Part shown: positions 24,677 to 42,669 of the stretch, in pieces
Layout of the letters: every line of letters starts with the position of its first letter
Position numbering within the stretch: the first letter of the stretch is position 1
Notes under the pieces: generated by a model
What the model was told of the DNA's origin: nothing
What the model saw: only the letters and a program-made list of their open reading frames with translations
The model's database searches: none
Translations under genes and position numbers: made by a program
Assembly (NCBI GenBank): GCA_021463485.1
Contig: JAJTYJ010000002.1
Coordinates: forward strand, 108,638 to 172,637
Direction: 5' to 3'
Length of the DNA stretch: 64,000 nt
Source of the DNA: a bacterium
Lineage (GTDB): Bacteria > Patescibacteriota > UBA1384 > 2-12-FULL-50-11

Positions 24677-25056
24677 TACAGACGTACTTTGCTGCTTTAA
24701 CAAGCGGGACCTTTGTTTTACCTACCACGGGAACAAAGGAGCGTAATCGCGAACATTTCGCGGTTACAAGAACAAACCAGCCGATGGACTGGCAAATTTC
24801 CATCCCTTTCTCGGTAAAACGAGAGAGTGCCAAACAATTCCAAAAAAACAAAACAGTATGTCAGCTGAAATGATTTATCATTTCGCTCGTAAGGTTCAGT
24901 AGGCTTTTATGTGAGTTAAATCTCAAAGAGTTTGACGAAGACGGTTTCGGCCGTCGGACACAAATTTCTTACCAAAAGGTAAGAGTTTGATCTGAGCACA
25001 ATTCTTCTGAAGAGTGCGAAGACAAACTCTCATAAAAATCCCTACAGGAATTTTTA

Positions 25057-26505
<1,449 letters not shown>

Positions 26506-26637: not shown

Positions 26638-26836
26638 TGGGCGATACTGGACTCGAACCAGTGACCTCGTCATTATACGCTGAGCGAACCGTTCAAATTT
26701 TGTCTGTGCGCGTACCTGGACTCGAACCAGGGACCTCGTCATTATCAGTGACGCGCTCTAACCAGCTGAGCTATACGCGCAAGGACAAAATTTGAATGTA
26801 TCAGTGACGCGCTCTAACCAGCTGAGCTAATCGCCC
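26638..26836 (-). tRNA. Split/intron-containing tRNA-Ile(GAU)-like gene: 5' exon 26798-26836, 125-nt insertion 26673-26797 at position 37/38, 3' exon 26638-26672
   Basis: 5' part is GGGCGAT-T-AGCTCAGCTGGTTAGAGC-G-CGTCA-CTGATA. 3' part is A-TGACG-AGGTC-ACTGG-TTCGAGT-CCAGT-ATCGCCC-A. The acceptor pair (GGGCGAT/ATCGCCC) and the T-stem pair (ACTGG/CCAGT) are perfectly complementary to each other and differ from those of the nested gene. The insertion holds the complete tRNA-Ile above, bracketed by the inverted repeat TTCAAATTTTGTC / GACAAAATTTGAA. Confidence 0.5.
26707..26780 (-). tRNA. tRNA-Ile (anticodon GAU), complete 74 nt, nested inside the interruption of a second tRNA-Ile gene
   Basis: Minus-strand cloverleaf: acceptor GCGCGTA/TACGCGC, D-arm TAGCTCAGCTGGTTAGAGC, anticodon stem-loop CGTCA-CTGATAA-TGACG, T-arm CCTGG-TTCGAGT-CCAGG. 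No encoded CCA. Confidence 0.85.
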
Positions 26837-32273: not shown

Positions 32274-32346
32274 GGGCCGTTAGCTCATTTGGTAGAGCGC
32301 CGCATTTGCACTGCGGAGGTGTGGGGTTCGAATCCCCAACGGTCCA
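32274..32346 (+). tRNA. tRNA-Ala (anticodon UGC)
   Basis: Cloverleaf: acceptor GGGCCGT/ACGGTCC with the G3:U70 Ala identity pair, anticodon loop TTTGCAC, T-arm TGGGG-TTCGAAT-CCCCA. 73 nt, no encoded CCA. Confidence 0.9.
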
Positions 32347-32354
32347 CAACAAAA

Positions 32355-38604: not shown

Positions 38605-38889
38605 TTACAGCTACCGTTCCTAACGCAGAGTCTTGACGCAATATGCGCAAATATGGGACAATCACCAGGTACATGTTAGGAAAAACACAAGGAGGCGTCG
38701 GTTTATAAGAGACCACTATTTTGGGGTCACCTTAGAAGCCGCTCGCCAAAGCGGTTTTTTCTTACCTCTGATGAATACTTAACAACTAGGTTTCCAAGCT
38801 GAAGTCGAAGACAATTCGACGACAGCACAACTTCAGATATGGTTCCATAATCATATTTGAAGCAAGTAACAGCAACGCGAAAGCGTTAG

Positions 38890-41838
<2,949 letters not shown>

Positions 41839-41945
41839 TTTTCTGCGCGTAATTTCTACGCAGGAAAGAAGGAACGTCGCCTGAATTGTCTTCGACTTTG
41901 GTTTGGAAACCACAACAATATAACGTTCTCGGATGGAGGTGAGCT

Positions 41946-42188
41946 ATGGCGAAGTATATCGTGAAATGCTCAGCATTAGACAACCAACACAAATCCAAGC
42001 GGGTGAACAGCCCGGAATTCGACGCGAAAAACGATGCCGATGCGATCAAGCTCGCCGGCGGTCATGTTGACGCATTAATCTCCGAACACTCACTCACCGA
42101 TGGTCAGTACAAGGTCTATCGCTGTAAGCGACTGTTCTCATCGGAGAAATGTATTGCCGAGGGTCCGATCACCCCTCAGCGCTACTAG
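41946..42188 (+). CDS. Hypothetical small protein (80 aa) encoded in the 23S-5S spacer
   Basis: Strong SD GGAGGTG lies 5 nt before the ATG. The ORF ends 85 nt before 5S. There is no TM helix. Sequence is MAKYIVKCSALDNQHKSKRVNSPEFDAKNDADAIKLAGGHVD…. Confidence 0.4.
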   Translation: MAKYIVKCSALDNQHKSKRVNSPEFDAKNDADAIKLAGGHVDALISEHSLTDGQYKVYRCKRLFSSEKCIAEGPITPQRY

Positions 42189-42272
42189 ACCTACCTCGGC
42201 GAGCTCGCTCGCCACTCTATCCGAGCACGTTATAGTGAGATCTGTAATTGAAGTTAAGCGTTTGAACTTTTT

Positions 42273-42391
42273 ATCTTGGTGTCTCGAGCGACAGGGGTAC
42301 ACCTCTTCCCATTTCGAACAGAGAAGTTAAGCCTGCCAGCGCCGATGATACTCAGGGCTAACAGCCCTCGGGAAAGTAGGCCGACGCCAAG
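42273..42391 (+). rRNA. rrf: 5S ribosomal RNA
   Basis: The terminal helix pairs tcttggtgtc with gacgccaaga. Internal blocks cccatttcgaacagagaagttaagcc and cgccgatgatact match the 5S consensus. Length is about 119 nt. Confidence 0.85.
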
Positions 42392-42404
42392 ATAAAGAGT
42401 TTAA

Positions 42405-42434
42405 ATAAAAAAAGACCCACATGGGTCTTTTTTG
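42405..42434 (+). terminator. Rho-independent terminator of the 23S-5S transcript
   Basis: agacccacatgggtct hairpin preceded by an A-run and followed by TTTTTTG. Confidence 0.7.
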
Positions 42435-42462
42435 TTTGCGGCAATTTTGAGATATTCAAATT

Positions 42463-42669
42463 ATGAACAAACGCACACGGGTAATTAGCGCTACCGCGTT
42501 TATGGTACTAGGAGGATTTCTGATGATTACTTCCTTTATGGGCGGTACCGACCTTAAAGCTGGTGGCGTCGCAGAAGCGGGTTTTGACGTTAGTAAATTT
42601 TTAATCTGGAGCGGTGTCGGCGCGCTCGTTGTTAGCGCCTTTTTGTTTATCTCTGCTAGCGCAGAGTAG
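42463..42669 (+). CDS. Hypothetical small membrane protein
   Basis: 68 aa with two TM helices. Its 3' end is duplicated downstream as a direct repeat. Confidence 0.35.
   Translation: MNKRTRVISATAFMVLGGFLMITSFMGGTDLKAGGVAEAGFDVSKFLIWSGVGALVVSAFLFISASAE

Follow-up and report, generated by a model that had tools for sequence, protein, structure and literature searches.

An 80-residue protein gene in the 23S-5S rRNA spacer of a Patescibacteria group bacterium, bracketed by a conserved helix that includes its Shine-Dalgarno sequence

In an uncultured Patescibacteria group bacterium, the 23S-5S rRNA spacer contains an open reading frame (ORF) of 80 amino acids, and the pattern of substitutions among its orthologues shows it to be a genuine gene under strong purifying selection on the protein. 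Two features of the locus had been missed in a preliminary description. The Shine-Dalgarno (SD) sequence of the ORF is, as judged by RNA pairing analysis, not free but base-paired, being engaged in a conserved helix of 27 bp around the ORF. In addition, the corresponding spacer of relatives is, from the comparison of their sequences, a slot for different and unrelated small ORFs, or for none.

The window, that is, the whole stretch of 64,000 nucleotides that was analysed, was tied to 'Patescibacteria group bacterium BroJett034' (BOKZ01000001.1) by a RecO gene located 1.3 kb downstream of the locus. RecO is 98% identical between the two, and the 23S end and 5S are 100% identical; no mention of BroJett was found in the literature. 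The features of the locus are collected in Table 1. The 23S rRNA of the window is uninterrupted, with the RF02541 match running from end to end and with no introns and no IVS. It lies 12.4 kb from the 16S rRNA, and the genes found between them encode a NAGPA-domain protein, MurB, YkuD, dCTP deaminase and Fpg. Since housekeeping genes occupy this distance, the 16S rRNA is regarded as unlinked, and the 23S rRNA, the ORF and the 5S rRNA as a unit of their own. A further ORF of 68 amino acids with two predicted hydrophobic segments was observed immediately after the 5S terminator (42463-42669, plus strand); it is conserved in the relatives' loci L001 and L027 (71 aa) and has no family assignment.

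Table 1. Positions of the features discussed in the text; those with an L prefix refer to loci of relatives, all others to the window
Feature	Position	Strand	Remarks
16S rRNA	25052-26503
tRNA-Ile(GAT)	26706-26780	minus	just after 16S
tRNA-Ala(TGC)	32274-32347
Promoter-like site TTGACG-18-GACAAT with TG extension	38633-38662	+	consensus scan only; upstream of 23S
23S processing stem, 5' strand	38788-38823	+	pairs with 41876-41912 (RNAduplex), about 30 contiguous bp
23S rRNA	38898-41835	+	Rfam RF02541, 2453.8 bits, model positions 1-2925
13-bp hairpin directly after 23S 3' end	41835-41871	+	inverted repeat I4
23S processing stem, 3' strand	41876-41912	+	partner of 38788-38823
Bracket helix, 5' arm	41915-41945	+	contains the whole SD; reaches the base before ATG; inverted repeat I1
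80-aa ORF	41946-42188 including stop	+	ATG start, TAG stop; orphan small protein
Local hairpin GGCGAGC-tc-GCTCGCC after stop	42199-42214	+	without U tract
Bracket helix, 3' arm (anti-SD side)	42206-42238	+	starts 18 nt past the stop codon
5S precursor helix	42259-42290 with 42379-42407	+	27 bp; inverted repeat I2; RNAduplex -34.0 kcal/mol
5S rRNA	42275-42392	+	Rfam RF00001, 80.5 bits
Intrinsic terminator after 5S	42408-42436	+	12-bp perfect hairpin and U run; inverted repeat I5, MFE fold
Structured spacer RNA element	L056:140-335; L034:202-406; L036:3348-3541; L014:7847-8040; L030:2902-3085; L018:8831-9010		also in L020 and L021

By the Rfam coordinates the spacer measures 439 nt, and these coordinates bear out the placement of the ORF in this spacer that had been given. 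It had also been reported that the motif GGAGGTG stands 5 nt before the ATG. As an SD the motif (41935-41941) stands, being the perfect complement of CACCUCC in the 3' tail of the window's own 16S rRNA, whereas its spacing from the ATG has to be corrected to 4 nt (AGCT). The length of the ORF by itself is not beyond chance, and an ORF of at least 80 aa is present in 20% of dinucleotide-preserving shuffles of the spacer. The case against chance is made by the perfect SD, by the reading frame being kept in three other lineages and by the distribution of substitutions over codon positions.

In the protein database, the near-identical cluster (99%) is spread over 71 contigs of many samples in the form of 7 sequence variants; SRR10579385, SRR25621605, SRR35340108 and DRR335824 are among the data sets that contain contigs with the gene. 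Among the contigs listed, 24 of which were read, the ORF was intact on 10 of 10 strain contigs. The gene is carried by four lineages and lies in all four in the spacer that separates the 23S 3' end from the 5S rRNA. The orthologues are P0001, P0002, P0097 and P0091; P0002 (locus L001, 80 aa) is 76% identical to the window protein, P0097 (locus L057, 79 aa) is 67% identical, and P0091 (locus L027, 80 aa), which was added by exhaustive HMMER search, is 42% identical. When the ORF of the window was compared with that of L001, 58 of 243 nt were found to differ (10/10/38 by codon position, no indel), corresponding to a dN of 0.13, a dS of 1.8 and a dN/dS of 0.073 (NG86). The comparison with L057 gave 20/14/43 substitutions by codon position and a dN/dS of 0.086, and the value was 0.078 in the third of the three NG86 comparisons. 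In the two other reading frames dN is greater than dS. Between the window and L001, indels are present in the downstream spacer and none occur within the ORF. The check that had been proposed for this ORF, namely the conservation of its frame and the balance of synonymous and non-synonymous change in relatives' spacers, was thus carried out and favours a gene; the protein-coding assignment itself is supported by orthologues in the 23S-5S spacers of three other lineages, by dN/dS values of 0.07-0.09 and by the lack of indels. As a structured non-coding RNA would be unable to yield this codon pattern, it is concluded that the protein is made and is selected.

The opposite reading, according to which there is no protein and the frame is open only as a side effect of conserved RNA structure in the spacer, draws on the frequency of ORFs of this length in shuffled spacers and on the richness of the spacer in conserved RNA structure. 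It is effectively refuted by the codon-position analysis, as the third-position excess and the low dN/dS are confined to this frame. Frame and length are moreover preserved at 42-76% identity, and a permissive Rfam scan of 41800-42480 returned the 5S rRNA and a chance sRNA match only, no family covering the ORF or the spacer. A strand bias adds to this; in 10.4 kb of spacers, the ORFs that follow an SD and have at least 55 aa number 18 in the rRNA-sense orientation and 0 in antisense.

The RNA of the unit is predicted to form three helices in series, which enclose the 23S rRNA, the ORF and the 5S rRNA. The helix around the ORF begins 3 nt after the 23S stem and ends 20 nt before the 5S stem. 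The window and L001 differ at 5 of the 110 nt of the leader, which is near-invariant because the 23S processing stem has its 3' strand there; the motif TCTTC[GA]ACTTTGGTTTGGAA of this strand is kept across the clade. The hairpin directly after the 23S 3' end keeps its structure with a different sequence in L027 and L057, and may be a 3'-end maturation signal. In the bracket helix, the 31 nt preceding the ATG pair with 33 nt downstream of the stop codon to give 27 bp (-39.8 kcal/mol, RNAduplex). An unconstrained MFE fold of 41912-42440 contains the same helix, and the z value of the helix against shuffled 3' flanks is -5.7. The 3' half of the local hairpin after the stop codon overlaps the inner 7 bp of the bracket helix, and the two are alternative structures. 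A post-stop hairpin of other sequence is found at the same place in L027 (GGGCAAC/GTTGCCC) and L057 (GTGGCGATT/AATCGCCAC); since its position is conserved while its sequence differs, this hairpin could modulate access to the SD.

The bracket helix is shown by covariation of its arms to be conserved and under selection. In L001, a compensatory double change has taken place in the arms (G41931 to U with C42222 to A), and the arms of L057 and L027 have a quite different sequence with complementarity kept at the same position. A 5' arm with the SD at its end and a 3' arm that opens with a CCUCC-like anti-SD were found in 17 cassettes; the helices are 17-27 bp long, a length that fits substrates of RNase III, and 4-5 of the 5 nt of the SD core are paired in 17 of 17. 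The RNAduplex energy has a z value of -3.4 to -7.6 in most cassettes (300 shuffles of the 3' flank), with p at or below 0.003 in 14 of 18 shuffle tests. RNAalifold predicted 16 pairs on the alignment of the arms, and 14 of these show compensatory changes. The arms were located by a complementarity (duplex) search, which biases the paired percentage upward, so that the 95.6% of paired cells has to be read beside the 39-50% in controls with the partner slid by 1-3 columns and beside the shuffles and the unconstrained fold. On any of five measures, 0 of 500 column shuffles reached the observed value. The alignment contains 21 G-U cells as against 8 A-C cells, and the excess of G-U argues for pairing at the RNA level on the sense strand and not for a DNA palindrome.

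From the position of the ORF, we infer that it is co-transcribed with the rRNA. Neither a promoter-like nor a terminator-like site was found in the 23S-to-ORF interval by consensus scan and inverted-repeat search. The promoter-like site upstream of the 23S rRNA might, tentatively, be a candidate start of the 23S-ORF-5S transcript; the number of promoter-like sites in the region was not above the shuffled expectation in the consensus scan. We regard it as very improbable that an ordinary gene, independent of the rRNA and driven by a promoter of its own, lies here by chance between the 23S rRNA and a separately promoted 5S rRNA. This explanation could appeal to a promoter-like sequence between the ORF and the 5S rRNA (TCGCCA-16-TATAGT, 42209-42236), but that sequence lies inside the 3' arm of the bracket, which explains its conservation, and promoter-like sites are not enriched over shuffles; on these two grounds a promoter between the ORF and the 5S rRNA was rejected. 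The 110 nt upstream of the ORF, for their part, are taken up by the 23S 3' hairpin, the processing stem and the 5' arm of the bracket, and contain no promoter-like match.

We consider it probable that the locus is a helix-bracketed gene that is transcribed within the pre-rRNA, that RNase III acts at the helix to excise or gate it, and that the pairing of the SD controls translation. In such a mechanism, the rRNA promoter would drive transcription of the cassette within the pre-rRNA, and the bracket helix would be cut by RNase III in the manner of the flanking rRNA stems, by which a mini-mRNA of about 300 nt would be freed. Pairing of the SD would keep ribosomes off the nascent precursor and would gate or throttle translation, and the output of protein would thereby be tied to the synthesis and processing of rRNA. 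The gene for RNase III, rnc, was not found within the 64-kb window, and its presence in the genome rests on a report that rnc is retained in CPR (PMC12641178). The SD and the start codon are placed at the inner end of the stable helix, and the inner half-helix would still cover the SD after a central cut. Because the SD is inside a stable helix, the access of ribosomes is not obvious.

The main rival, which we hold to be unlikely, takes the helix as purely architectural. In this case, the helix would loop out the insert and keep the spacing of the 23S and 5S stems without being an RNase III site, the ORF would be poorly translated from the precursor or from decay intermediates, and the masking of the SD would only silence an over-transcribed gene. 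A short hairpin occurs at the same position in ORF-less relatives and fits an ancestral spacer hairpin with an expanded loop; likewise in agreement with this rival, the helix abuts the 23S stem and the pairing of the SD is universal among the cassettes. Against it stand the resemblance of the 17-27 bp helix to the flanking rRNA stems, the retention of rnc reported for CPR (PMC12641178), and the strong purifying selection on the protein, which must accordingly be translated at a useful level.

With RecO as synteny anchor, 18 distinct complete 23S-5S spacers were recovered from GTDB genomes and metagenomes, the relatives being MAGs labelled Berkelbacteria or Saccharimonadales. Three of the 18 spacers are short (83-227 nt) and ORF-less, with a hairpin of 6-9 bp at the corresponding place. 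Most other spacers are 430-1286 nt long and contain one to three ORFs of 56-117 aa preceded by GAGGAGG-type SDs. The ORFs of L027 and L043 stand in tandem cassettes with a bracket each, and L014 and L022 have two ORFs inside one bracket. By BLASTP and hhalign, the cargo is unrelated except for the family of the window and a pair from L022 and L043 (93% identical, dN/dS about 0.27). The idea that the spacer ORFs are diverged homologues, based on a shared pattern of N-terminal β-strand and helix, found no support in BLASTP or hhalign and was dropped. No match to the cargo ORFs was obtained in Pfam, NCBIfam or PADLOC. Their pI ranges from 4.6 to 10.8, and on account of this range and of the non-homology across relatives, a core ribosomal-protein role was rejected as a general explanation.

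Some further observations concern the spacers of relatives. An additional bracket helix in L050 (3570-3880; ATTTAGCTAGGAGGC / GCTTCCTAGCTGAAT) surrounds only a possible TTG-initiated ORF of ~46 aa and may represent a shorter or decaying cassette. Partial copies of the 5S rRNA were seen near the genuine 5S in L017 (1884-2001), L024 (2378-2415), L018 (9592-9634), L034 (899-1016 and 1174-1291) and L051 (~1170-1225), and none in the window; such duplicates suggest repeated rearrangement or insertion at the site. In many relatives, a structured RNA element of ~150-190 nt that is absent from the window directly follows the 23S processing stem in the 23S-5S spacer (Table 1). RNAalifold gave 43 pairs for this element, 10 of them with compensatory changes; it has no Rfam match, and an insertion of ~177 nt interrupts it in L021.

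On a wider reading, to which we would give slightly less than an even chance, the 23S-5S spacer would be a clade-wide cassette platform that holds one to three SD/anti-SD-bracketed orphan mini-cistrons, driven by the rRNA promoter and separated by RNase III in the same way as the rRNAs, in which the cargo turns over and the bracket is conserved. The turnover of cargo could also be ascribed to a selfish or mobile IVS-like insertion, the ORFs serving the element or being passengers and being exchanged by recombination at conserved arms. This appears distinctly improbable, even if several observations would suit it. Unrelated ORFs occupy the same slot despite similar 23S 3' ends, as illustrated by L024, which is 93.9% identical there and carries other cargo, and L027, which is 91.5% identical and carries the family of the window; two recurrent types of arm sequence are common to loci with different cargo; tandem cassettes are each bracketed; and partial 5S duplications lie nearby. 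Against a selfish element, no integrase, endonuclease or ribozyme is associated with the cassette, and no member of the family was found outside the spacer, in phages (tblastn) or in IMG/VR viral contigs. The dN/dS of 0.07 over deep divergence argues, furthermore, that a function has been kept by vertical descent.

The protein was described earlier as soluble and Lys-rich with two Cys. Its soluble and Lys-rich character is in line with the present results (9 Lys, 4 Arg, GRAVY -0.62, pI 8.8, no hydrophobic segment), but the number of Cys is three (C8, C60 and C69). C8 alone is invariant within the family, and for this reason a metal-binding Cys pair was rejected. Its tryptic peptides would include VNSPEFDAK, LAGGHVDALISEHSLTDGQYK and a YIVK-containing peptide. 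AlphaFold2, for which the input alignment consisted of five sequences only, gave concordant structures in 4 of 5 models with a pLDDT of 81-84. A soluble α/β domain is predicted, with the topology β1(2-12) β2(17-21) β3(25-27) α(30-48) β4(50-60) β5(68-75), and this β-β-β-α-β-β fold has no significant match. Among the conserved basic and polar residues are K3, K16, R19, K28, R59, D42 and H48; it may be speculated that these positions are compatible with a binding surface. It is our guess, offered with low confidence, that the protein is a small binding or modulator protein and not an enzyme or a core ribosomal protein.

Homologues outside the four spacer-resident lineages were found neither in two word-indexed searches nor in an exhaustive HMMER profile search, which covered 1.84 billion representative proteins. 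Pfam gave no match save a sub-threshold one to CDCA, no match to the protein was obtained in NCBIfam, PHROGs, PADLOC or the PDB sequences, and a metagenome scan with the ORF profile found nothing.

Among known systems, the ORF-bearing intervening sequences (IVSs) of 23S rRNA come closest. These are inserted in helix 9, 25 or 45 of the 23S rRNA, and the ORFs that they contain belong to the S23p or 23S-rRNA-IVS protein family (PF05635). Like an IVS, the cassette is extra RNA in an rRNA precursor, with a long stem formed by its own ends (27 bp, covarying) and an ORF in the loop. Unlike an IVS, which sits within the 23S rRNA and fragments it, it is situated in the 23S-5S spacer after 41835 and leaves the 23S rRNA intact, and the ORF is not S23p, having no Pfam or NCBIfam match. 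Coxiella burnetii has a helix-45 IVS with an S23p ORF, and the stem of this IVS is cut by RNase III; the ORF is without a functional ribosome-binding site (RBS), is decaying and is apparently not translated (PMC4990558). The present ORF differs from the Coxiella ORF in its perfect SD, its dN/dS of about 0.07, the participation of the SD in the stem, the tandem cassettes and the varied cargo.

The bracket also resembles the RNase III processing stems of rRNA, in which the two flanks of a unit in the primary transcript pair into a helix of 25-30 bp. The middle helix of the present locus, unlike these stems, encloses an mRNA under purifying selection, and one of its arms is the ribosome-binding site. 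RNase III is known to punctuate or activate mRNAs, as in the early transcript of phage T7 and in the unmasking of the E. coli adhE RBS. Here as there, cistrons are separated by double-stranded processing signals, putative ones in the cassette, and cleavage could change the accessibility of the RBS; those systems are mRNA operons and not rRNA operons. A comparison can also be drawn with the mRNAs of hok-type type I toxins, in which a fold-back between the 5' and 3' regions masks the initiation of translation until processing. Long-range pairing between the immediate flanks of a small ORF is shared with hok mRNA, whereas the product is a hydrophilic 80-aa protein and not a short hydrophobic membrane toxin. 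A consensus-only scan for an antisense RNA gene found no promoter-like site on the minus strand within 41836-42274.

The rRNA genes of CPR are known to contain group I and group II introns with ORFs for homing endonucleases of the LAGLIDADG or GIY-YIG type, and the most comprehensive survey of rRNA insertions in CPR covers the rRNA genes only, with spacers unmentioned (PMC11270868). The cassette has in common with these introns that protein-coding DNA lies inside a Patescibacteria rRNA transcription unit; it differs in being intergenic and in having no ribozyme core (Rfam, 41800-42480). No LAGLIDADG, GIY-YIG or HNH domain was found in the ORF with Pfam, PHROGs and NCBIfam, and at 80 aa it is too small for one. 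In the 3' part of the 23S rRNA of relatives, group I introns and a LAGLIDADG gene were observed (L027:3468-4031, L014:5279-5489 and L024:1033-1254), and the 23S and 16S rRNA of the window are free of introns.

To our knowledge, protein genes are usually held to be absent from bacterial rRNA operons, apart from the ORFs of selfish introns and IVSs, which encode endonucleases or are in decay. Literature searches on ORFs of 23S-5S spacers and of the rRNA operons of CPR found no description of this arrangement. The conserved cassette architecture therefore appears to be previously undescribed, and is related to IVS-like, RNase III-punctuated elements of rRNA operons. What distinguishes it is a protein gene, under selection and equipped with an SD, that would form part of the pre-rRNA together with a processing-type helix of its own, and the recurrence of this design with different cargo across the clade. 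Annotation and rRNA-insertion surveys that are restricted to the interiors of rRNA genes overlook these cassettes. If the proposed mechanism is true, the output of protein would be coupled directly to the synthesis and maturation of rRNA, and the cell's most heavily transcribed unit would offer a natural case of RBS masking by 5'-3' bracket pairing. The orphan small proteins of the reduced genomes of episymbiotic CPR may then have a defined place of origin. If the platform reading is true as well, the cassettes would represent a new mode of gene expression, in which mRNAs are matured from pre-rRNA, and the spacer might be a place where small proteins specific to a lineage originate or are exchanged.
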